IMG/VR virus record: IMGVR_UViG_3300037313_000669
Coordinates: 1-37,287 of that record
Direction: 5' to 3' (one strand)
DNA length: 37,287 nt
From: a virus
Taxonomy: Duplodnaviria > Caudoviricetes
In this document: positions 2,273-22,610 of the stretch, one piece after another
How the letters are laid out: every line of letters starts with the position of its first letter
Position numbering within the stretch: the stretch's first letter is position 1
The notes under the pieces: model-generated
Told to the model about the DNA's origin: nothing
Databases searched by the model: none
What the model saw: only the letters and a program-made list of their open reading frames with translations
Made by a program: the position numbers and the translations under genes

Positions 2273-2503
2273 ATGAGCAGTAACGGGAACGACGCGCCGC
2301 TGTTTCTGGACGATGCCGAACTGGTCGCCCTGACCGGCCGGAAGCTCAAGAGCAAGCAGGTCGAATGGCTGCGGCACAATGGCATCGCCTTCAGGGTCAA
2401 CGCCACTGGGCATCCTGTCGTCACGCGCTCCGCAGTGGAAAGCCGCGAGACTACGACGCCTGCACCCATTCGCGGCTGGACACCGAGGGTGATCGGAGCA
2501 TGA
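2273..2503 (+). CDS. xis: excisionase-like DUF4224-type protein
   Basis: FLDDAELVALTGRK...QVEWLRHNGIAF; lies directly upstream of, and overlaps, the integrase start. Confidence 0.8.
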   Translation: MSSNGNDAPLFLDDAELVALTGRKLKSKQVEWLRHNGIAFRVNATGHPVVTRSAVESRETTTPAPIRGWTPRVIGA

Positions 2504-3669
2504 GCATGGGTCGCAAGCCGACTCGCTGGCTGAACCTGCCGAAGGGCATGCGTGCGCGCCCGCGAGGCAACAAGGTCTTCTACTACCTGGACACGGGCGC
2601 CAAGCCGCGCAAGGAGATCCCGCTTGGCAGCGACTACGGTGTTGCCGTCCAGAAGTGGGCTGACCTCACCAGCAAGCCCGCGCCAGCACCGGACGCGCCG
2701 AACACGTTCCTCGATGCCGTCGACGGCCGCGGCATGGTGAAGGGATACCGCAAGGACGTCATCCCGAAGAAGGCGCCACGCACGCAGCAGGACAACGAGA
2801 CCGAGCTCGAGTGGCTGCTGAAGTTCTTCGGAGATCCGCCGGCACCGCTGGAAAGCATAGAACCGGTGCACATCCAGCAGTACATGGACTGGCGCGTGCA
2901 AGCCGCGCGCGATCTAGCGGATAAGAAGAACGCCGAACGACGCCGCGATGGGCGCCCCGAGCAGCCGATCGATCCCGACATCGGCCAGGTGCGCGCGAAC
3001 CGCGAGAAGGCCCTGTTCTCGCACATCTGGAACTACGCCAGGCGCAAGGGCCTGACCAAGGATTCGAACCCCTGCGCGGGCATCAAAGGCTTCAGCGAGG
3101 ATGGCCGCGACGTCGTGCCAGATGCTGAGCTCGTCGCGCGCGTGCAGAAGGAAGCTGACACGCCGCTACAGTTCGCGATGCGCCTTGCGGACATCGTGGG
3201 CCAGCGCCCGGCCGATGTGCTGCGCGTGAGCGAGACCGACATCGATGGCCAGATCCCCGGGGGCGTGCTGAAGGTGCGCCAGGGCAAGACCCAGACGAAG
3301 CTGCGCATAGTGATTGAGGGGGCGCTGGCCGATCTGCTGCTCGAGATCCGCGAATACAAGCGCGCCATCGCAAAAGAGCGCGCCGAGGCCGACAGGCCAG
3401 CCGTGCACACGCTGAAACTGCTGGTGCGCGAGGACGGCCAGCCGCTGACTGGCGGGATGCTGCGCTCGCGCTTCGATGACGCACGCGAGCGCGCCGGCGT
3501 GCAGAAGGACCTCTTCCAGTTCCGGGACTACCGCGCCAAGGTCGCGACCGAGGTGGATGAGGCGGAAGGCACCCGAGCTGCCCAAGCACTACTGGGCCAC
3601 ACGACCGAGTCCATGACGGTCACGTACATCCGCCACAAGGTTGGCCGGAAGGTGCGCTCAAGGAAATGA
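2500..3669 (+). CDS. int: tyrosine recombinase / phage integrase
   Basis: GQRPADV (R), VRQGKT (K), FRDYRAK, LLGH, MTVTY (Y); N-terminal arm-binding-like YYYLD segment; ATGA-coupled start. Confidence 0.95.
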   Translation: MSMGRKPTRWLNLPKGMRARPRGNKVFYYLDTGAKPRKEIPLGSDYGVAVQKWADLTSKPAPAPDAPNTFLDAVDGRGMVKGYRKDVIPKKAPRTQQDNETELEWLLKFFGDPPAPLESIEPVHIQQYMDWRVQAARDLADKKNAERRRDGRPEQPIDPDIGQVRANREKALFSHIWNYARRKGLTKDSNPCAGIKGFSEDGRDVVPDAELVARVQKEADTPLQFAMRLADIVGQRPADVLRVSETDIDGQIPGGVLKVRQGKTQTKLRIVIEGALADLLLEIREYKRAIAKERAEADRPAVHTLKLLVREDGQPLTGGMLRSRFDDARERAGVQKDLFQFRDYRAKVATEVDEAEGTRAAQALLGHTTESMTVTYIRHKVGRKVRSRK

Positions 3670-3739: not shown

Positions 3740-3787
3740 TGGTAGGACGTGCAGGATTCGAACCTGCGACCAACGGATTAAAAGTCC
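3740..3787 (-). mobile_element. att core: 3' 48 nt of tRNA-Lys(UUU)
   Basis: Minus strand GGACTTTTAATCCGTTGGTCGCAGGTTCGAATCCTGCACGTCCTACCA gives anticodon loop TTT, T-arm and CCA; the 5' half of the tRNA is absent. Confidence 0.92.
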
Positions 3788-3804
3788 ATCGCAAACTCAA
3801 GGCA

Positions 3805-3817
3805 AATCAATGACTTA
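3805..3817 (+). promoter_or_regulatory. IHF binding site
   Basis: AATCAATGACTTA matches consensus WATCAANNNNTTR exactly, between the core and the right arm repeats. Confidence 0.7.
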
Positions 3818-4113: not shown

Positions 4114-4368
4114 ATGAGAGAGCCGCTGGACATCCCCGTCCTCCCCAAGCCCGGCCCCACCCAGACCATCGAGGAATACGGCCGAGAGTGCGCCGCGGTG
4201 GGCCTTTTCAACGAACGCGCCGCAGTGCTCCGGGAACTGGATCTTCTTGCTCGTGAGTTCGATGCGGCCGGCAAGCCGAATACAGCGCGAAAGGTGCGGC
4301 AGACGGCCGAGAAGATCAACGCGCGGCTGCGCGAATCGTCACCCCCTGCGCCTTTCGCCGGCTCGTGA
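4114..4368 (+). CDS. hypothetical protein
   Basis: 84 aa ORF, GTGA-coupled to the ligase gene. Confidence 0.6.
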   Translation: MREPLDIPVLPKPGPTQTIEEYGRECAAVGLFNERAAVLRELDLLAREFDAAGKPNTARKVRQTAEKINARLRESSPPAPFAGS

Positions 4369-5033
4369 GCACGGTCGACAATTTCCGGCCCATGCAGGCG
4401 GCTGAGTCGCCCGTCAAGGCCTTCACCGATCCAGACTGGATATTCGAGATTAAATTCGACGGTTACCGGACCCTGGCCGGGATAGAGGTGGATGATCAGT
4501 TTTCGGACCTAGGACCTAGGTCGAAAAACTCATCATGCGTCCAGCTGCGCACGCGGACGGGCAAGGACTGCACGCGCTGGTATCCAGAGGTGGTCGACCA
4601 GCTCGCCACCCTGCCCGGTGGCCCGCACATTCTGGACGGCGAGGCGTGCGTTCTGGACGACATCGGCCGGGCCGACTTCAACCGTCTGCAGGACCGCGCG
4701 CGCCGGCGCTGCTGGTACAAGGACTGCGATCCGGTAACGCTGTGCCTGTTCGACATCCTCGTGCACGACGGGCGCGAAGTAACTGGCCTGCCTCTGGTCG
4801 AGCGCAAAGCGTTGCTGCAAAAGCTGCTGGCGCGCGCGCCGAAGCGATCACTGCTGTACGTGGGCGACTTTCCCGCCGATGCTGGCCTGTTCTCGCAGGT
4901 CGTGCTCGCGCTGAAGCTCGAGGGGTTCGTGGCGAAGCGCAAGGACAGCATCTACGTGCCGGGGGAGCGCACCTTCGCATGGCGGAAGGTGAAGAGGACC
5001 GGCTGGCAGAAAGGGCGGCGCTGGAAAGGGTGA
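4365..5033 (+). CDS. ATP-dependent DNA ligase (LigD/LigC-like), adenylation domain only
   Basis: Motifs I EIKFDGYR, III LDGE, IIIa FDIL, IV EGFVAK, V WRKVK; ends about 12 aa later with no OB fold. Confidence 0.88.
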   Translation: MSTVDNFRPMQAAESPVKAFTDPDWIFEIKFDGYRTLAGIEVDDQFSDLGPRSKNSSCVQLRTRTGKDCTRWYPEVVDQLATLPGGPHILDGEACVLDDIGRADFNRLQDRARRRCWYKDCDPVTLCLFDILVHDGREVTGLPLVERKALLQKLLARAPKRSLLYVGDFPADAGLFSQVVLALKLEGFVAKRKDSIYVPGERTFAWRKVKRTGWQKGRRWKG

Positions 5034-5310: not shown

Positions 5311-5348
5311 AGAGAAAAGCCCCTCCAGCCCGCGAAGGCCAGAGGGGC
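5311..5348 (-). terminator. intrinsic terminator at the end of the late operon
   Basis: GCCCCTCTGGCC-TTCG-CGGGCTGGAGGGGC-TTTTCTCT on the minus strand. Confidence 0.8.
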
Positions 5349-5392: not shown

Positions 5393-5692
5393 TCAGCGGG
5401 CTCGGCGCGCTCGCTCGTCGATGCACCACTGCACCGTCTCGAAATATCCTGCGCCGTCGACGCAGTTATCTCGCTTCGGCGCGTTCACCTGCCGCGAGAG
5501 CTTCACGCAGACCATGAACATGCCGACCTCTTCTGCGGTCAGGGGCTCTTTGAGCTTGTGGGCGAGCATGGCGCTGACCATGCCTGCCGTGCGCGAGAAG
5601 TCGTCGAGCGGATTTCCGTACGCCGCGTTGCGATCCCCATGGACCAAGCCTTCGGCCTCAACGAGCACACTGATGCGATCGGATGTAGTCAC
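5393..5692 (-). CDS. DUF6378-like phage protein
   Basis: EAEGLVHGDRNAAYGNP...F...KLSR...DNCVDGAGY pattern. Confidence 0.8.
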   Translation of the reverse strand: MTTSDRISVLVEAEGLVHGDRNAAYGNPLDDFSRTAGMVSAMLAHKLKEPLTAEEVGMFMVCVKLSRQVNAPKRDNCVDGAGYFETVQWCIDERARRAR

Positions 5693-6113
5693 GAACTTTC
5701 TCCGCCAATGATGCGTCGTCGCGGAGAAACCCGACGGCGCGGTTGCAGTGATTGCACAAGAGCGACCGAATCGCCCCTGTCGTGTGGTCGTGGTCGACGT
5801 GGAGCACGCGATGGTGTGGCGGCCAGTCTTCTACGGTAGAAGGGTCAAGGCCGCAGATCGCGCACTTCCCGCGCTGCGCTGCGGCCATTTCGTTGTACTG
5901 CTCCAGCGTGATGCCGTAGCGCTTCTTGAGGGCGTAGCGCTTGTCCTTGTCGACCCAGTATTCCTTCTTGCGAGTGCGCCGATATTCGACTTGCCTCCTC
6001 GCCAAGCAGGGGTAACACTGCTTCGTCTTGCGCTCTGGGAATTTCGTTGGGTCAGTGCATCCGCAGTCTATGCAGACGCGCGGGGACGGAGTGCTATGCT
6101 CTGTGACAGCCAT
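5658..6113 (-). CDS. endonuclease VII-family (probable free-standing homing) endonuclease
   Basis: YGITLEQY...Q.GKCAIC...VDHDHTTGAIRSLLCNHCN; N-terminal CxxC..C zinc ribbon. Confidence 0.9.
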   Translation of the reverse strand: MAVTEHSTPSPRVCIDCGCTDPTKFPERKTKQCYPCLARRQVEYRRTRKKEYWVDKDKRYALKKRYGITLEQYNEMAAAQRGKCAICGLDPSTVEDWPPHHRVLHVDHDHTTGAIRSLLCNHCNRAVGFLRDDASLAEKVRDYIRSHQCAR

Positions 6114-6143
6114 CGTTGCCTCTCGAACAGGTGATGGTGGTTA

Positions 6144-6190
6144 GGGGCGCATCCGGGTGTTCCACCACTCGGTGCGCTCCGCCTATTCTA
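6144..6190 (-). promoter_or_regulatory. putative -10 box and leader hairpin of the endonuclease gene
   Basis: TAGAAT (6190-6185) followed by inverted repeat GGAGCGCACCGAGTG-GTGGAA-CACCCGGATGCGCCCC. Confidence 0.5.
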
Positions 6191-6292
6191 TGTAGGCCGC
6201 CCATCTCGGACAGCAGATTTACACGTTTGGTCCGCGTCGCCGTGCACGAGGCCCTGCGCTTCGGTGAGGACGCTGATTCGTTCGGTCGTCAT
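6188..6292 (-). pseudogene. truncated original 5' end of the DUF6378-like gene
   Basis: Translates MTTERISVLTEAQGLVHGD(ADQTCKSAVRDGRPT*) with AAGGA RBS; matches N-terminus MTTSDRISVLVEAEGLVHGD of 5393-5692. Confidence 0.85.
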
Positions 6293-6356
6293 GGGTTTCC
6301 TTCTGGAAATCGTTTCTCATGCTGATCAATGTCAACAATGAGAAACACTTGCTCGC

Positions 6357-7616
6357 TTACGTGAGCATCTCCGGTGAAAAGTGAAGCGTCTGCGCCATCG
6401 CGCCATTCGCGTGATAGCTGTGGCCTAGAAGCTCGCGCGCTGCGGCCAGCCCCTTGTCAGCGGCCCACGCGTTGCGCGCGGCAAGCGTCGGGTGCTGGTA
6501 GACCATCATCCCGCGCTCTTCCTTGCCGCTGTGCACGATGAAGTGCTTGTGGTGCATGTGGCCCGTGTGGCAGATGCGGTAGGTAGCCTGCCCCCACATC
6601 TGGGCGAAGTCCGCAGCGAAGATGCCCGGCAGCTCACCCAGCCGCGCCTTGTCGCCGTGATGCGTGGCGATCATCGTCTTGCCGAACAACATCGCCCAGT
6701 ACGGACGGATCGACTGCTCCACGATCACGCGCGGCTCGCGCTCGAAGATGCGGGTGAACAGTTTGCGCATCCACCACGCCGATAGCGGATCGTGATTGCC
6801 CGGCTTGATCACCAGCCGCACGCGAGCGTACCGACGCAGGCCGTGCGTGACGGCCGCCTCGATCACCTCTGAGCCGACGTCAGCGATCTTGGGATAGCGG
6901 CCATCGACGTCCAGCAAATGCTTGCTGGCGGGGGTCAGCGGCGCATAGCCGTCCGAGTCAGTGAAGTCGCCCAGGATCACAAGCACCAGTTCCTGCGCCG
7001 CAGGCAGGTTGTCCATCAGCCAGCAGGCACCGGTCAGAAGCGTTTCGCGGGCGATGCCCAAGTCCCAGCTGCCAGAACCGGTTTCCTTGTCCCAGGCAAG
7101 CGCGCCGACATGCCCATCTGCGATCGTCACCTGGTTGAGGATGTTCGCAGGCCCCAGAACATCCGGCAGCGGCTTGGGTTGCACTGGCTCGACGCAGGCG
7201 ATGCGCCGGTCTAGCGCCTCTTCGATCGCTGCCTCGCGTCCTTCTGGGCTTTGCCGCTCCCAGGTTCGTTCTACCCCTCCATCGGCGCCGCGCTGCACCG
7301 TGACCTTGCCCATGAGGTAACCGGGCGCTACGCCGCTGTCCCAATGTCCCGGCGCATGCCCTTTTCGCGCCTCGTCCACCGTTTCCCGGTAGGAGGAAAG
7401 GCGCTCTTTCAGTTCTTCGTACGAGGGCATCGGTTCGCCCTCAAGCGTCTTTCGATCCTCGCGCTTGACGAATCCGCGCTGCACGGCCATCGCAACGCGA
7501 GAGTCGAAGGTGCGGGACTGAACGCCATCCAGCAACTGCCAGCCGTGGGTGCCCTTGCGCTTATAGGCTTCTGCCGCCTGCAGCGCCAGAACGTCGGGCA
7601 GCGATGGCGTGGGCAT
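6357..7616 (-). CDS. calcineurin-like metallophosphoesterase
   Basis: DGH, LGD, GNHD, HHGD and GHMH metal-binding motifs. Confidence 0.85.
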   Translation of the reverse strand: MPTPSLPDVLALQAAEAYKRKGTHGWQLLDGVQSRTFDSRVAMAVQRGFVKREDRKTLEGEPMPSYEELKERLSSYRETVDEARKGHAPGHWDSGVAPGYLMGKVTVQRGADGGVERTWERQSPEGREAAIEEALDRRIACVEPVQPKPLPDVLGPANILNQVTIADGHVGALAWDKETGSGSWDLGIARETLLTGACWLMDNLPAAQELVLVILGDFTDSDGYAPLTPASKHLLDVDGRYPKIADVGSEVIEAAVTHGLRRYARVRLVIKPGNHDPLSAWWMRKLFTRIFEREPRVIVEQSIRPYWAMLFGKTMIATHHGDKARLGELPGIFAADFAQMWGQATYRICHTGHMHHKHFIVHSGKEERGMMVYQHPTLAARNAWAADKGLAAARELLGHSYHANGAMAQTLHFSPEMLT

Positions 7617-8035: not shown

Positions 8036-8347
8036 CTACGCACCCGGCTTGTACTTGAACGATCCTGTGCTGATGCGCTGCTGGTCGCCGTCTTCGTAGA
8101 GGATCAGAACCTCTTGCTTCTCCGGCTCGACGGCCCAGCAGGCATAGAAGAATCGGTGGTTCACCTTCGCCCAGGCGCCACGAAATTGAGAGCGCAATTC
8201 CTCTTTGATGCGAGCCAGCGTGGCGGCGTTGTCGCAGGGTCGGTCGACCAGATGCACTTCATCGCCGCTGATGTTGCTAGCGACCATTTCGTCGGCGGCC
8301 GCAGGCAGCGCGAAGGCGAGAGCCGCGACGAGGATCAGGTACTTCAC
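8036..8347 (-). CDS. secreted/periplasmic hypothetical protein
   Basis: Signal peptide MKYLILVAALAFALPAAA; two Cys. Confidence 0.75.
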   Translation of the reverse strand: MKYLILVAALAFALPAAADEMVASNISGDEVHLVDRPCDNAATLARIKEELRSQFRGAWAKVNHRFFYACWAVEPEKQEVLILYEDGDQQRISTGSFKYKPGA

Positions 8348-8862
8348 GGCTTGTTCCTTACGGTTTCGTAGATCCGCTCGCAGACGGTGCCGGCCTGGTG
8401 GCTTTCGTCAGCAAATCGGATAGTTCCGTTCTCAGCCTCTTCCAGCCTTCGCTGCACGTCGGCGAGCAAATCGGAGGTGGGGTCGGCTGGCGCGCTTCCG
8501 CCGGCAACGGTGACTGCGATGCGGGCTGCACGTACGGCTTGGGCTCGGGCTTCGGTAAGGGCGCTGGACAGCCGCTCACCAGCAGCGACAGAGCCGTCAT
8601 AGCTGCTGCGAAGAGCAGCGTTCTCAGTGCGTGCATGATCCAACTCCTGTTCGATGGCTTTCGCCTTCGCGCGCTCTTCGGTGCGTACTTGATTGACAGC
8701 CGCGAGTTCGCGCTTCGCGTATTCGTCCTGTGCGCGCTTGTAGCCAGCCGCATCGCCGCGCGCGATGAGCGAGTCGGTGTAGTGGTTCCAGCCCCAGATG
8801 CAGCCGACGATCAGGGCGGCTCCGATCGCGACCTTCAGGAGCAGTGCGCCGATCGGGCTCAT
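8344..8862 (-). CDS. Rz: i-spanin (Rz-like, DUF2514-like)
   Basis: N-terminal TM, coiled coil, C-terminal FAD...AGTVCERIY; downstream of the endolysin. Confidence 0.85.
   Translation of the reverse strand: MSPIGALLLKVAIGAALIVGCIWGWNHYTDSLIARGDAAGYKRAQDEYAKRELAAVNQVRTEERAKAKAIEQELDHARTENAALRSSYDGSVAAGERLSSALTEARAQAVRAARIAVTVAGGSAPADPTSDLLADVQRRLEEAENGTIRFADESHQAGTVCERIYETVRNKP
8358..8636 (-). CDS. Rz1: o-spanin (Rz1-like lipoprotein) embedded in Rz
   Basis: AGGAG RBS, MHALRTLLFAAAMTALSLLVSGC lipobox, proline-rich mature part, alternative frame inside Rz. Confidence 0.85.
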   Translation of the reverse strand: MHALRTLLFAAAMTALSLLVSGCPAPLPKPEPKPYVQPASQSPLPAEARQPTPPPICSPTCSEGWKRLRTELSDLLTKATRPAPSASGSTKP

Positions 8863-10839: not shown

Positions 10840-11322
10840 ATGCGCCCGAATCTGCACTTGCTGCGTACGCTGGCTGTTGGTTTCGCTCTATTGGTTGCGG
10901 GGTGCTCGCAACAGTACGAAGTCGCCGTCAAGCAGCTCCTGAACGACCCGGAGAGCGCCAGGTTCTCGGAAGTGACGAAAGGCGTTTCATTGGGTGATGT
11001 GTGCGGCTACGTGAACGCCAAGAACGCTATGGGTGGTTATGTGGGAAAGACGCCGTTCTACTACCGGGCCAACGGTGAGACGGCCGTCGTTCCCCCCATC
11101 GAAGACAACGACTTCCGCATCTACCTTTGGAACATCACGGGCAGCGATTCGGACAGGAGATACGCCGACCTTAGCCAGCGGTGCGTAGCCGTCAGGCAAT
11201 GGAAAGAGGTGTGCGGCTTTGACCATCCCGGAGGCGTCCACCGGCTGTGTGACGTCCTTGTGCGGCAAGGCAACACCGCCAGCCTGTATCTCATTCTCGA
11301 TAAGGAATTCAGATACCGATGA
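10840..11322 (+). CDS. moron lipoprotein
   Basis: GGAG RBS, lipobox LVAGC, LNDPESARF...VCGYVNAKNAMGGYVG. Confidence 0.8.
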   Translation: MRPNLHLLRTLAVGFALLVAGCSQQYEVAVKQLLNDPESARFSEVTKGVSLGDVCGYVNAKNAMGGYVGKTPFYYRANGETAVVPPIEDNDFRIYLWNITGSDSDRRYADLSQRCVAVRQWKEVCGFDHPGGVHRLCDVLVRQGNTASLYLILDKEFRYR

Positions 11323-12380
11323 AGGCCAGTCCCAACCTCGACGTCCTGCGCGCCATCGCCGTCTTGCTGGTGGTCGCCAGCCATATAGGCTTCAACCTCG
11401 GTTGGGGCGGCAGCAGTTACGACATTGAAGCGGTAGGGCGCGTCGGAGTCGCGATCTTTTTCGTACATACGAGCTTGGTGTTGATGCAGTCGCTGCAGCG
11501 CACCGGAGCCGCGCCCCTGTCCTTTTACGTGCGCCGCGCGTTCCGGATCTATCCGCTCGCTGTCGTGATGGTGCTGCTCGTCGCTGTCGGCAACTGGCTC
11601 GGAGGCATACCCTTCACGGGCTGGGGCATCGTGAGCAACCTGCTGCTGGTGCAGAACCTTACCGGCCACGAGTCGATCCTTGCGCCGATGTGGAGCCTGC
11701 CTTACGAAGTGCAGATGTATCTCGTGCTGCCCGCGCTGTTCTTGCTCGCGCGCTCGCACGGTGCGCGCGGCGTCGGCATGCTTCTAGTGGGATCGATAGC
11801 GACCGTCCAGGTACTTTGGGATTTCGGCGTACCCGCTACGCTCGTCCTGTACGTCCCCTGCTTCGTCTGCGGCGTGCTCGCCTTCGCAATCCCGCGCCGC
11901 CCTATCCTGCATCCGGCCCTCCTGTTCGCCGTCGTGGCCACCGCAGCGATCGTTGCGCCCGCTGCGATTGCCAGCGGCATTCAGGAGGTGCCGGTGCTCT
12001 GGGCTCTCTGCGTCGTTATGGGTGTGACAATCCCGCACTGCCGGGAAATCGAATTCCAGCCCCTTGCGCGCGCGGGCGCGTTCGTGGCGAAGTACAGCTA
12101 CGGCATCTATCTCACGCACCTGTTCGCTATCCGAGCCGGTTTTCGCTTGGCACCCGGCATCCCGGCTTGGCTGGAGTGGGTGATCTTCGTCGCCGTCCTC
12201 GCAGCCTTCGTGCGCGTGGCCTACCGATGGATCGAAGCGCCAGGAATCGCCTTGGGCGTGCGCTTGGCGGTCAGGCTACGTGCAAACGAACACTTGCGGC
12301 CTGACGGAGCCGCCCGCAGCAGCGACACCGGGAAGCCACAAGCGACGGGGTTCCTGAAAGATGCCCCACGGGTTCGCTGA
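11319..12380 (+). CDS. acyltransferase-3 (OafA/Oac-like) membrane O-acyltransferase
   Basis: LDVLRAIA..LVV.SH, GVAIFF, FYVRRAFRIYP, WSLPYEVQMY, SYGIYLTH; multiple TMs. Confidence 0.92.
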   Translation: MKASPNLDVLRAIAVLLVVASHIGFNLGWGGSSYDIEAVGRVGVAIFFVHTSLVLMQSLQRTGAAPLSFYVRRAFRIYPLAVVMVLLVAVGNWLGGIPFTGWGIVSNLLLVQNLTGHESILAPMWSLPYEVQMYLVLPALFLLARSHGARGVGMLLVGSIATVQVLWDFGVPATLVLYVPCFVCGVLAFAIPRRPILHPALLFAVVATAAIVAPAAIASGIQEVPVLWALCVVMGVTIPHCREIEFQPLARAGAFVAKYSYGIYLTHLFAIRAGFRLAPGIPAWLEWVIFVAVLAAFVRVAYRWIEAPGIALGVRLAVRLRANEHLRPDGAARSSDTGKPQATGFLKDAPRVR

Positions 12381-18326: not shown

Positions 18327-18754
18327 TCTTCGATCCCCGCATAGCGCCAAGCCGCGACGATGCGCGAGCGCCAGATGTCATCGAGGCGATGCTCCACGAC
18401 TTTCATCAGCCCTGCTCCGTTGTAGGCGTGGATCAGCGACAAACCGCCGTGCACGTAGTCGCCGACGATCCCCAGGTGCTGGGGTTCGCCGTCAAAGCGC
18501 ATCCACACGACGTCCGCTGGTGCGATGTCCTTCTTCGGCACGCGAACAAGGTGTGCGTCGAGCGCGGCGCGCATTTCGGCGGGAACCGGCGTGCGGCCGT
18601 AGCGCGTGTAGTCCGTGAGCGGGATGCCCAGCGTCTTGGCGACGTGCACGGGCACGCCTGCGCAGTCGAGCGCGACACCGGCCACACGGCCCTGGTGTTG
18701 ATAGCGCGTGCCGATGGTTTGGCGCGCGATTGCGATGACTTCGCAGGCCTTCAT
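18323..18754 (-). CDS. NlpC/P60 tail-associated peptidase
   Basis: GTRYQHQGR...LDCAG...QHLGI...LIHAY catalytic Cys/His/His. Confidence 0.9.
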   Translation of the reverse strand: MKACEVIAIARQTIGTRYQHQGRVAGVALDCAGVPVHVAKTLGIPLTDYTRYGRTPVPAEMRAALDAHLVRVPKKDIAPADVVWMRFDGEPQHLGIVGDYVHGGLSLIHAYNGAGLMKVVEHRLDDIWRSRIVAAWRYAGIEE

Positions 18755-21700
18755 GGAGTCCACCAGTTCCCGGAAACGACTATCGCGCTCAGCAGCTGAA
18801 TCTCAGTGCTGTAGTAGGTCGACTCGGGATGTGCTTTGGCGTGCGTCCACAGCGCATCCAGCCAACTCTGGAAGCGCACGTCGCATATGGCCCCGACCAT
18901 CATCGGGCAGTAGAAGGCCGCATCGATACAGAACGGATTTGCTCCAACCAGACCGCTGCCGTCCAACGCGTAGCCGTTGATGATGTTTGTCACCGCCCCG
19001 CCGGTCGTCGAGGAGAAGAACGTCTCCATACGAGTGAGGTAGGTCTTGACGTCCGTGTCTCCCGTCATCGCGAAGTCAGTGCCGAAGCGCCACGGGTCGC
19101 GGCACGCGTTGTACCAATAGCCGTCCTCGTGCGGGTTGCCGCCATCGTTCACGGCGGTCGTCAGGAACGGATTGGCAGTATCTACACCGCCAACCCAATC
19201 GGGCAACAGACCCGTGGCTGGCGCGTAGTTGCGCTGCATGTAGTCGGTGATCCGCTTTTGCTGCGCGATCGCGTTGTCCCAGAACGAATCGCCTGTCGCG
19301 CGCTTGAATGCGCGGAAATGGCCGAACATGTAGTCGGACGTGCGCCCCTCGTGCATCACGCCTGCCGTCTCGACAATGTTGCCGTTCACATCGAAGGCGT
19401 ACGACTTGATCTGCGCGAGCATCGCCTGCGCGATGGACTTGTAGTTCCACGTCCCGCCCGATCCCCACTGCACGTCAGCCATCAGCAGCGCGAGCGCGAT
19501 GTCCATATCCCCGTCCAACGCGGGCCATTGAGCTCCGGCATCGGTGCCGTTCGCGTAGACACGCCAGCTCATAAGCTCGCTCATGTTGATGACGCCGCCG
19601 TAGTCCTTTGAGCGAACCGCGCGCACCGTGGACAGCAGTGCATCGAACTTCTGCTGTGCGCCCCCGTCGTAACCGGACATCAGCACGGTGATCAACATGC
19701 CGTAACCCATGCCCTCGGACACGGTTGCAAATGTTGGGTCCGAGTACTGCACCCACGCAGCACCAGCCGGCAGCAGCCCCATGCCACCGGGCGTGGTCTT
19801 GTACAGGTTCGCGACCCACGTGTCGTACTGCTGCTTGATGAACGCGTCCATGCTGGCCAGCGTGTCGGAGGGCGTGCTCACGCCAGACGCGTACGCCACA
19901 CGACGCGAACCGAACGGATAGCCACTGCCGCTGGAGCCAGCGGTCCCGCCGCCGCTGCCCACGCCGGCGTAGGCGTTGATTTCGGCGTCGGTGAACAGGC
20001 CCCGGCTCGTAAGCTCCGCGCGCTCCGCCGAGGACAGCGTCCCGCCGGCAAATGCGGTGGCGATATACAGCGTGACCTTGGGCGTGGTCATGTTGTAGAG
20101 CAAGCCGAAGCGACCTTCCGCGCCGCCGCCGCCCTGGTCGACGAGCTCATAAAACACGATCGATTCGACAAGCGTCTGATTGGCGATCAGGTACTTGCCG
20201 TGCAGGACGTTGCCCGCCCACCCCTGCTCGGTCAGCGTGTCGCCGGCCGCGTTGCCGTAGCCCGAATCGTAGATTTCATTGGCGTTGAACTCGTTGATGG
20301 TGACGGGCTTGCCCAACCGCTCGATCATCCCCAGCGCGCCTGTCGGATACCACCACGTATCGTTCGTGGCCTCGGTCTGGTCCGGGTAGTAGTGGAACGA
20401 AAGCACGTCCCACGACACGCCTTTGGAATCGAGAAAGTCGATCCACGCGTAATCGCGTGTGCAAAGACCATTCAACACGCGCAGCGCGCGACCGCTGGCC
20501 GTGGCCTTGTCGCGGATCGCCTGCGCCATGCCCTTCTGGTACGCCGCCATGGTTTCGCAACCCGGCTGGCCCGTATACAGGTCGGTGCCCTGTGCGCTGT
20601 TGCGAGGGACCTCGTTCGTGATGATGGCCCTGTTCTGGACCTCGTTCATGATTTCGAAGTCGAGCACGACGTCGTAAACGGAGTTGAGCAGCGTCGTCGT
20701 GTTCGCGTAGGCCGCGTTGTAGGTGGCCGTCAGGTCGCTCGAAGGTGCGAGCGTCCACGACCCAGCAGGCTCAAGGACAAGCTGCACCGCGCCGCCATAA
20801 GCGTTCACCTTGGCGATCATGTCGCGCAGGTTGGTGACGTTCGTGGTGTCGTCCATCAACATCCGGACGGCGCGCATGTTGCGCGCTTGCAGGATCGTTG
20901 CGATGGCCGCGTTGGTCGTGCCGTAGAACGATCCGCCATCGTGGATGTTGATGCCGATGCTCACGCTCGAAGGCGACGGCGGAGGCGTACCGGGCGAAGG
21001 GGACGGCGGCGGTGGGGCAGGAGGTGGCGGCGAGCCGGGAGGCGGCGGCGGCGAATGCGCAATCACCGGAGTGGGTGTCATCGTGGTCCCGGGGCCGCCG
21101 AAGACGCCGACACCCGGCAGATGGGGGAAACCCCGAAAGTTCAGCGCGTTGTTGAACTTGCCGATGCAGTCTTCGTAGAAGCGCTTTTGGCAACCGGCGT
21201 ACACCGTGAAGCTGTCGGGAACGCTTGGCGCCGGGTCGCTGCCGCTGCCTGGTGGCGGAAATGGCATCCCCGGGGTGTCCGCTGCGGTGATCTCTTCGGG
21301 CATTCCCTCGAACAACTCGAAGATGCCCGACCCACCCGAGAGGGTGTACGCCTTGACCTCCATCGACAGGCCATTGTTCAGGCCGGATGTGAAGGTGAGA
21401 AGCCCCCCGGTGAACCAGTCCGTGGGCTCGGTGCGATCAGGTGCCGTGATGACCTTGTTGTCGTCGACATGGGCCACGTAGCCCGTCACCGTCCACGGCG
21501 CAAGGTCGATCTTGCAGCGCGCATCGCCCAGATTGGCGTTGCACTCCTGCGTGACCAGCCGCCCGATCTTGCGCGAGTAGGCCTGCGTCAGGCCCCGAAG
21601 CTCGGTCTTGAACTGGCTGCGCCCGGCGGTGACTCTGCCCAGCGTGCCGCTTCGGACGATGTTCTTGCCCATCGTCAGGTCGGCGAAGTTGACCTCGAAG

Positions 21701-21999
21701 ATTTCGATCTGCGCGTAATCCCAGCGCCCGCGCTTGATATCGTGCTCGGTGATCAGCGGAGAAGCGAGGAAACCATCGACCTCGAGGTTGTCCACCGACA
21801 GGTCGGCCGCGCTTTGGTTGTCCGAGCCGTTGAAGCCGTTGTTGGCGAGGTACGTGACGCCATCGATCAGAAGGTCTTCGGTGTACGTCGTGCAGGCGAT
21901 GACGCTGCCATCGCGCAGGTTCGCACGCCAGCAACCGGCGATCTTCGTCGTCCCGAGGGCGTATGCCGCCTTCAGGGTGCTCGAGATGTCGCGGGTCAC
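18751..21999 (-). CDS. baseplate hub (DUF2163/BR0599-like) fused to clan GH-A and GH8 glycoside hydrolase domains
   Basis: Hub motifs (DLSVDNLEV, ELRGLTQ, C.A.LGDARC, AGC.K...C..KFNN.LNFRGFPHLPG), Pro linker, TIM-barrel NE/HYY/NE motifs, GH8 TVSEG.GYGML and ALDGD.DIA. Confidence 0.88.
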   Translation of the reverse strand: MTRDISSTLKAAYALGTTKIAGCWRANLRDGSVIACTTYTEDLLIDGVTYLANNGFNGSDNQSAADLSVDNLEVDGFLASPLITEHDIKRGRWDYAQIEIFEVNFADLTMGKNIVRSGTLGRVTAGRSQFKTELRGLTQAYSRKIGRLVTQECNANLGDARCKIDLAPWTVTGYVAHVDDNKVITAPDRTEPTDWFTGGLLTFTSGLNNGLSMEVKAYTLSGGSGIFELFEGMPEEITAADTPGMPFPPPGSGSDPAPSVPDSFTVYAGCQKRFYEDCIGKFNNALNFRGFPHLPGVGVFGGPGTTMTPTPVIAHSPPPPPGSPPPPAPPPPSPSPGTPPPSPSSVSIGINIHDGGSFYGTTNAAIATILQARNMRAVRMLMDDTTNVTNLRDMIAKVNAYGGAVQLVLEPAGSWTLAPSSDLTATYNAAYANTTTLLNSVYDVVLDFEIMNEVQNRAIITNEVPRNSAQGTDLYTGQPGCETMAAYQKGMAQAIRDKATASGRALRVLNGLCTRDYAWIDFLDSKGVSWDVLSFHYYPDQTEATNDTWWYPTGALGMIERLGKPVTINEFNANEIYDSGYGNAAGDTLTEQGWAGNVLHGKYLIANQTLVESIVFYELVDQGGGGAEGRFGLLYNMTTPKVTLYIATAFAGGTLSSAERAELTSRGLFTDAEINAYAGVGSGGGTAGSSGSGYPFGSRRVAYASGVSTPSDTLASMDAFIKQQYDTWVANLYKTTPGGMGLLPAGAAWVQYSDPTFATVSEGMGYGMLITVLMSGYDGGAQQKFDALLSTVRAVRSKDYGGVINMSELMSWRVYANGTDAGAQWPALDGDMDIALALLMADVQWGSGGTWNYKSIAQAMLAQIKSYAFDVNGNIVETAGVMHEGRTSDYMFGHFRAFKRATGDSFWDNAIAQQKRITDYMQRNYAPATGLLPDWVGGVDTANPFLTTAVNDGGNPHEDGYWYNACRDPWRFGTDFAMTGDTDVKTYLTRMETFFSSTTGGAVTNIINGYALDGSGLVGANPFCIDAAFYCPMMVGAICDVRFQSWLDALWTHAKAHPESTYYSTEIQLLSAIVVSGNWWTP

Positions 22000-22610
22000 T
22001 CTCTGACTTCCTGCAGGGTGACGGTGGAGCTGTAGAAGCGCCCATCGGGGTCGCTGCCGGCTACGTTCATCGACCACTCGATCTGGTCGTTCAGGAAGTG
22101 CACGGGCACGTAGAACTGTCCGGTGACGGTGACGAGAGCCGCCGAGGGCGAGCCGGTGATCGTCATCTGCCCCGTCGCGTAGTTGACGGTCGCGGAGGTC
22201 GCGACACCGGACACGAACACGGTGATGGTCCCGGTCATCGGCCGCGTGATCTTGCGGTCCTTGTGGCGGCCGGCGACGGTGTAGCGCTTGTACAACTGGT
22301 AGTTGCCACCACCCAGATCTGCCACGCGCCCGCTCGTGCCCAGGCTGTTGTCCTTCGGGTCCAGCAGCAGGAACCCGTACGCGCCGGCTTCGGTGTTCTC
22401 GAAGATGGCGTCGAACTGCTCGCGGATCGCGCGGCGCAACGGGCCGACGTTGACGTCGTACTCGCGCAGGGTCTTGTCCTGCACGATGTTGATCGACTCG
22501 AAGCCGTTGGCGGTGGTCACGCGCTGGTTTTTGCGCATCAGCCGGCCGGTGATGTTCTGCGCGAACTCCTGGCCGGTGACGATGATGTCGTCAAGGACTT
22601 CGATGCTCAT
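21996..22610 (-). CDS. distal tail protein (DUF2460-like)
   Basis: T.NGFE..N, GFLLLDPKD, YQLYKRY, RKITRP, VNYATG, GQFYVPVHF. Confidence 0.85.
   Translation of the reverse strand: MSIEVLDDIIVTGQEFAQNITGRLMRKNQRVTTANGFESINIVQDKTLREYDVNVGPLRRAIREQFDAIFENTEAGAYGFLLLDPKDNSLGTSGRVADLGGGNYQLYKRYTVAGRHKDRKITRPMTGTITVFVSGVATSATVNYATGQMTITGSPSAALVTVTGQFYVPVHFLNDQIEWSMNVAGSDPDGRFYSSTVTLQEVRE

Follow-up and report, generated by a model that had tools for sequence, protein, structure and literature searches.

The question raised by this locus is why the beginning of a small phage gene is found there twice, once on either side of an endonuclease gene, and why the two copies are written in different codons. 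The locus lies in what is called here the window, viz. the whole analysed stretch of 37,287 nucleotides, a 37-kb virus record that is ~56% complete and that, having genes for an integrase, lysis, tail and head, resembles a temperate tailed phage. It is located on the minus strand, with a phrog_704 exonuclease-like gene (6357-7616) on one side and a terminator-like hairpin on the other (Table 1). A sequence-only reading of this DNA had described a mini-ORF that duplicates the N-terminus of the downstream DUF6378 gene, and this description is borne out by our analysis: 13 of the 15 aligned residues (6280-6236 versus 5677-5633) are identical, different codons are used at 10 of these 13, and the nuclease ORF overlaps the GTG-started DUF6378 ORF (5393-5692; PF19905, E 2.1e-18) by 35 nt. 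As the ungapped score of the duplicate is 68 and exceeds the maximum of 42 seen among 600 mismatched flank pairs, the duplication is not due to chance. The mini-ORF gave no match in a PHROG search, and its TAG stop forms part of the -10-like box of the nuclease cassette.

If an element was inserted after the HGD codons, as the same reading proposed, then an empty allele is predicted in which the upstream copy is joined directly to the remainder of the DUF6378 gene. Such an allele was found. In a public metagenome (run X10) a 118-nt contig joins 6236 to 5632 exactly, with zero target bases lost, zero ambiguous and 3 differences to either side; an equivalent joint, in which the next seven codons are variant, is present in run X9. 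Further, the nuclease is absent at all 12 viral loci with DUF6378 relatives (46-91% amino acid identity), the close loci among them read unbroken through HGD-R, and 15 of 16 further pattern matches in viral contigs are also uninterrupted DUF6378 genes, many of them on the same contigs as the 12 loci. Based on the uninterrupted alleles, the exact X10 joint and the equivalent X9 joint, the insert extends from 5633 to 6235, and its size and borders are as had been claimed. The X10 contig is ~94% alike, and its onward sequence matches by eye the upstream flank of locus L008, hence it derives from a related phage and not from the phage of the window. Runs X1 and X3, the possible sources of the window, contain the filled form only, and no empty allele of the window's own phage was seen in runs X1, X3 and X10; run X11 has a 99%-alike contig that starts close to the joint (at 6238), but the end of a contig is no proof. 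No record in the annotated phage collection covers the locus at the DNA level (the DUF6378 relatives there are <60% identical), and a pattern scan of genome contigs for the duplicated motif gave 105 matches, with no evident DUF6378 gene among them.

The uninterrupted alleles also distinguish between the two copies. Over 45 nt, the orphan is nearer than the working copy to the 8 close empty alleles (Table 1), and it is the closer of the two to 10 of 11 empty alleles. Where the same residue is encoded, codons identical to those of the 8 close alleles are found in 70 of 110 cases for the orphan and 32 of 101 for the replacement, the Fisher P of 5e-6 for this difference being overstated because the 8 alleles are related and not independent. 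One distant allele (L075) reverses the pattern, with 51% identity to the orphan and 69% to the replacement. Judged by these alignments, the upstream orphan is the displaced native start of the DUF6378 gene. Nuclease-free relatives with both N-terminal copies, which had been named as the observation that would speak against an insertion, are absent among 95 DUF6378 loci, where the search for a second copy gave three weak matches (<=6.1 bits).

Table 1. Features of the filled DUF6378 locus in the window and terminus duplicates at other leader-bearing loci.
Feature	Position	Strand	Basis or description
Orphaned native 5' end of DUF6378 gene	6236..6292	-	19 codons, last = HGD; 80-91% identical (45 nt compared) to the 8 close alleles without insert
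Native ribosome-binding site of the orphaned 5' end	~6298-6302	-	Sequence
Mini-ORF, 34 codons	6188..6292	-	19 native codons, then insert sequence up to TAG
Inserted cassette, 603 bp	5633..6235	-	Joint 5632->6236 in run X10 contig (skips 603); uninterrupted alleles
Predicted sense -10 box TAGAAT of nuclease promoter	6185..6190	-	Inference; -10-like hexamer at the equivalent place in 40/59 related leaders
Predicted SymR-like cis-antisense RNA, 76 nt, two hairpins	6108..6183	+	Rfam symR 35 bits, E 3.6e-4; folding
Predicted extended -10 promoter of antisense RNA	6092..6100	+	Sequence; TAnnnT in 47/59 related leaders
EndoVII-motif (F-CphI/DHHRN-like) endonuclease, 151 aa	5658..6113	-	PF02945, E 2.8e-20
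Replacement 5' end, 20 codons, GTG start	5633..5692	-	62-76% identity to the same 8 alleles as the orphan; its first 35 nt also encode the nuclease C-terminus
Native 3' part of DUF6378 gene, first residues RNAAYG	5393..5632	-	3 differences/51 nt to empty-allele contig; <=91% aa identity to empty alleles
Intrinsic-terminator-like hairpin closing the operon	5319..5348	-	Terminator-like hairpin prediction
L189/L204/L224			Phosphoesterase C-terminus duplicate, 36 aa, 66% nt
L199/L243			GIY-YIG, head morphogenesis gene
L256			NUMOD4-HNH
L222		opposite	Score 44, barely above null

The downstream DUF6378 ORF, as judged from its sequence, is complete by itself without splicing. It encodes 99 aa, matches positions 2-74 of the 81 in DUF6378 and is modelled with a pLDDT of 93. 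The insertion falls exactly between the D codon and the R codon of the conserved motif HGD-R, within G19-D20-R21-x3-Y25, where G19, R21 and Y25 are invariant in 15 of 15 sequences. It falls inside predicted helix 9-25, the first part of which is covered by the replacement. Because this motif is the most conserved in DUF6378, and due to the position within the helix, the modelled fold probably requires the substitute codons. No match at E<=0.001 was obtained with Foldseek for either the DUF6378 or the nuclease model. VIA-align of DUF6378 to MazG-like proteins gave Z-scores of 4.6-5.7 (2p06, 5.7; 4qgp and 7ody, 5.1), and a MazG-like fold was not adopted, as these scores are not above those of unrelated helical bundles; the weak matches of the model are a hint of a role in nucleotide metabolism. 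In L048 and L075, and probably in L051, DUF6378 is fused to DUF4406.

How the replacement acquired its different codons is a separate matter. The working start, whose GGAG is at 5703-5700 within the nuclease gene, was considered in the sequence-only reading to be a recoded copy with atypical codons. The second part of this proposal holds to the extent that the codon-adaptation score of the working 5' copy is low (0.50); the codon differences, on the other hand, are not clearly above those between two unrelated spellings, for which 7.0 of 13 differing codons are expected under this genome's usage (P(>=10)=0.07). If the start had been duplicated in place and recoded under selection, with the element spreading by destroying empty competitors and rescuing an essential gene, then one can point to the other codons used at 6 of 7 identical residues outside the overlap, and to the replacement being further from the close empty alleles than the remainder of the gene. 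However, besides the value of P=0.07 relative to synonymous saturation, the V-E-A-E-G variant of the replacement occurs naturally in L004 and L075, the DNA of the replacement is nearer to L075 than is that of the orphan, and its codon usage is near that of the nuclease gene (0.54) and unlike that of the host gene (0.69 for the rest of DUF6378; orphan, 0.72). A cleave-and-rescue drive, moreover, acts on an essential target gene and spreads by the loss of non-carriers, not by copying. Since the essentiality of DUF6378 is an assumption only, this designation, used in the sequence-only reading, is overstated; the expected mode of spread is homing, and recoding in place is in our estimation quite improbable. 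With 7 of the 15 aligned codons lying wholly or partly within the overlap with the nuclease frame, the start termed recoded looks rather like a captured donor or foreign allele under a dual-coding constraint, and these two factors explain its divergence without selection for recoding. Resistance to cutting is presumably a condition for the persistence of the element.

A captured foreign allele is also compatible with passive mosaicism, in which a module consisting of leader, nuclease and DUF6378 start was acquired via one homologous and one illegitimate crossover, with the nuclease having another target or none and no homing taking place. The resemblance of the replacement to a foreign allele, the codon divergence that is not above saturation, the absence of a second filled allele among the 95 DUF6378 loci and the existence of donor-like layouts (L388) are all in accordance with this explanation. 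However, the joint is precise and is situated inside the most conserved motif, and this together with two observations described below, viz. that relatives of the nuclease abut DUF6378 genes and that the layout recurs with unrelated nucleases, makes mosaicism unlikely.

The nuclease is matched by PF02945 over residues 62-145 of 151, with N-terminal Cys motifs and a C-terminal catalytic motif, and its profile matches T4 EndoVII (E 3.4e-7). In 6 of 6 nuclease relatives C84/C87, D107-H108-D109-H110, R116, C120/C123 and N124 are invariant, and these residues correspond to those required in T4 EndoVII and F-CphI (PMC6083498). The F-CphI/DHHRN motif (CX2C, DHDH, R, CX2C, N) is complete in the window nuclease, and a motif in the final helix is common to its relatives; by sequence, the catalytic motif is intact. 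The nuclease resembles the F-CphI/DHHRN group in having the EndoVII motif C-terminally and in being free-standing and adjoining its presumed target gene (PMC6083498). It has to be considered whether it is instead a housekeeping resolvase beside a split or regulatory arrangement, where the 34-aa upstream peptide functions as a leader peptide or as one half of a split protein, given that the mini-ORF retains a good RBS and that the nearest solved structure is that of T4 EndoVII, which is a resolvase. However, the downstream DUF6378 ORF is complete alone, the tail of the mini-ORF is insert sequence, the leader type found here also heads HNH and GIY-YIG genes, and the C-terminal location of the catalytic motif is the arrangement of the endonuclease clade (PMC6083498). 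Hence, we consider this arrangement very improbable.

Information regarding the target comes from the nuclease relatives. The best-scoring relative with DNA context is that of L048 (127 bits versus 91 for the next), and its gene and the partial one in L051 lie directly behind a DUF6378 gene, these being 2 of 53 loci that were retrieved via the nuclease; in the available flanks of the other 51, DUF6378 was not found. Judged by gene order, the adjacency in L048 and L051 suggests that this nuclease clade targets the DUF6378 gene. However, as these nucleases lie on the other side of the DUF6378 gene, the exact target site may differ. In a quick tree, from which the F-CphI/DHHRN and resolvase reference sequences were left out, the window and L048 nucleases are not joined with starred support. 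In the closest nucleases (P0002-P0005), inspected by eye, no such overprinted start is obvious at the C-terminus.

Upstream of the nuclease, the sequence-only reading had noted a promoter and a hairpin, which are best read as a two-way cassette with a SymR-like antisense leader. The match of the leader to SymR (RF01809) scores 35 bits, below the gathering score of 61 bits, and an Rfam scan of the insert gave sub-threshold symR and R1162 matches only. A group I intron, or any other structured RNA of a known family, was considered and rejected, as no Rfam match is above threshold and the insert contains stop codons in the host frame. The antisense strand folds with -44.6 kcal/mol (z -5.5), compared with -29.3 kcal/mol (z -2.1) for the sense strand. 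The predicted antisense RNA begins 7 nt after the extended -10 box, which is hidden in codons 5-8 of the nuclease, and covers the nuclease RBS and start codon. In E. coli, SymR is a ~77-nt cis-antisense RNA of symE, whose promoter is located in the first codons of the regulated gene (PMC1891008). The leader in the window is thus similar to SymR/symE in the predicted cis-antisense RNA over the RBS and start codon and in the promoter inside the first codons. It differs in that its score does not reach the Rfam threshold, the gene under its putative control encodes a DNA endonuclease, and the RNA is a prediction from sequence.

A pattern derived from this leader identified 76 viral loci. The antisense -10 (TAnnnT) occurs in 47 of 59 dereplicated leaders, a control place having it in 4 of 59; in 55 of the 59 the antisense strand is the better-folding one, compared with 18 of 56 for the control. 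Consensus folding of 20 leaders gives the first hairpin only, whose invariant pairs are partly set by the search pattern and whose covariation is weak, with two-sided changes in 3 of 12 pairs. A strict sigma-70 scanner returned 0 sites at the predicted nuclease promoter. Among 12 runs, none is listed as an RNA data set that contains this sequence. The sense -10 box often lies on or at the stop codon of the upstream ORF (L293, L237, L264 and, in the window, 6190-6185), in which case the -35 region would come from the upstream coding end. A SymR-like antisense RNA probably holds down translation of the nuclease. Of 58 downstream proteins scanned, 37 are HNH, GIY-YIG or EndoVII, 2 have AP2 or NUMOD3 only, 1 is TnpB-like (a TnpB/Cas12f-like gene with the same leader type, L236:684-1805), and 18 have no match. 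In L199/L243 and L242/L262, which represent two contigs, a near-identical leader of ~80 nt heads both a GIY-YIG and an HNH gene of one phage, which indicates that the cassette moves between nuclease families.

The sequence-only reading had further suggested a search for flanking duplications at other nucleases. The 76 leader loci and the window include 68 with adequate ORF and flanks, forming 51 clusters. In an ungapped duplicate scan, which covered leader-bearing loci only, 4 of the 50 other clusters exceed the null maximum (5 of 51 with the window), whereas a same-strand gapped scan, dominated by low-complexity matches, gave a clear flanking duplicate at 0 of the 53 distant EndoVII loci. All four of the other duplicates are of 3' ends (Table 1); the L204 and L222 nucleases have no Pfam match and are HNH-like by eye. 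For the L189/L204/L224 family, 30 close loci comprise 3 filled, 13 nuclease-free, 7 more distant and 7 not resolved by pattern, and the C-terminus of the 13 nuclease-free relatives shares 86-99% identity with the orphan, compared with 65-69% for the in-frame copy. In L293, a distant member of this family, a 55%-identical nuclease comes right after the stop with no orphan, and such a donor-type layout is also seen in L219 (versus L243) and, for DUF6378, in L388. The recurrence of the layout with unrelated nucleases in 4 of 50 clusters speaks against passive mosaicism.

The reading that we prefer, to which we assign a probability of about 0.7, is that a one-sided invasion from a donor was followed by two-armed homing, with the filled allele protected and the nuclease damped by an antisense RNA. 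If this is correct, then the nuclease would cut empty DUF6378 alleles at or near HGD|R, and the filled allele would escape cutting because its site is interrupted and, as rebuilt, no longer equals the empty one (6 of 15 and 10 of 25 bases differ left of the joint). The cassette would be copied when the break is repaired with the filled allele as template, the homology arms being the orphan side and the native 3' part. The layout itself would have arisen once, probably by one-sided invasion from a donor phage in which the nuclease abutted its own DUF6378 start, with the downstream broken end recombining into the donor gene and the upstream end being joined without homology. The start of the donor allele would have been shaped further by the bases that it has in common with the nuclease frame, and the antisense RNA would damp nuclease output.

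The principle involved is already known from replacement-terminus elements in yeasts (PMC7282813) and fungal mitochondria (PMC3630166). The WHO elements of Torulaspora and Lachancea encode LAGLIDADG endonucleases, replace the 3' part of the essential gene FBA1 and form clusters, and their allele-specific cleavage has been demonstrated (PMC7282813). The window element is similar to them in that a free-standing endonuclease gene lies between two copies of a host-gene segment, the host gene is restored by allelic replacement without splicing, and empty alleles exist (here in related phages) by which the orphan is the native copy. Resistance in the WHO elements is due to an allelic difference (PMC7282813), and the same is proposed for the window element. 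Unlike WHO elements, the window has an EndoVII-motif nuclease in a phage, the 5' 20 codons are replaced, the replacement overlaps the nuclease ORF, and the element is present in a single copy. It is thus not a WHO element in the strict sense, having a PF02945 nuclease and the 5' end of DUF6378 in place of a LAGLIDADG-zinc finger protein and the FBA1 3' end. In fungal mitochondria, mobile endonuclease ORFs make gene hybrids of atp6 in Allomyces and of atp6, atp9, cox2 and nad3 in Glomus (PMC3630166). As in these hybrids, a foreign terminus is in frame and the orphaned native terminus matches empty relatives better. However, those hybrids are C-terminal and in organelles, whereas the window element is N-terminal, in a phage and has a predicted antisense leader. 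The mention of a GIY-YIG gene that was duplicated together with the N-terminus of atp9 (PMC7487136) suggests that 5' cases may exist in mitochondria. The window element most likely homes without splicing, in the manner of the WHO elements and the Allomyces atp6 hybrids but as their mirror image at the 5' end.

In phages, SegF, mobE in Aeh1 nrdA and mobA of T4-like phages are also free-standing nucleases in or near conserved genes with no intron or intein (PMC2988022). However, those insertions lie between genes or split a protein into two chains (PMC2988022), whereas in the window one full-length chain is encoded via a substitute start. The layout described in PMC11855218, an out-of-frame HNH gene inside an in-frame insertion, is different. 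In a literature search of partial coverage, no description was found of phage nuclease cassettes that replace a gene terminus, nor of SymR-like leaders on homing nucleases in phages, and term searches inside PMC10448857 and PMC12724721 gave no such case. In yeasts, homing elements that replace a gene terminus have been recognised as a rare third category (bioRxiv 10.64898/2026.08.13.744650). The window element differs from the known kinds in its host (a phage), nuclease family, replaced end, overprinted start and leader.

In phages the layout is present in 5 of 51 clusters of one leader type, with at least 3 nuclease types and at both gene ends. If these elements home, they would represent a common and overlooked entry of selfish nucleases into tight phage operons, making chimeric genes. 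Because the orphan shows where the nuclease likely cuts, pairs of nuclease and target could be recognised directly from sequence, and the common antisense cassette suggests how such nucleases stay quiet in a temperate phage. We see the chances as evenly balanced that a portable SymR-like antisense cassette, combined with a nuclease of any family (HNH, GIY-YIG or EndoVII), constitutes a widespread third class of phage homing element that invades either gene end with a substitute terminus. In the 5' version, the host RBS and first 11 codons lie inside the last codons of the nuclease, and due to this the 3' end of the nuclease gene could not be deleted without beheading the host gene.

Some other features of the window may be noted. 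A partial tRNA-like sequence with a UUU anticodon is present at 3750-3806 (-), beside the integrase gene (2365-3669); its Rfam score is 27.6 bits (threshold 29), no full tRNA was found there by ARAGORN, and by sequence it is a likely attP core for a tRNA-Lys gene. A small ATP-dependent DNA ligase gene (4365-5033, +) is located between this attP-like site and the end of the late operon. A nested ORF with a lipobox-like motif (8358-8753), probably Rz1, lies inside the Rz-like spanin gene (8344-8862, -). Further, a baseplate-hub protein (18751-22077, -) carries fused glycosyl hydrolase domains of families 8 and 53, and an acyltransferase 3 gene of opposite orientation (11319-12380, +) possibly serves in surface-polysaccharide conversion.
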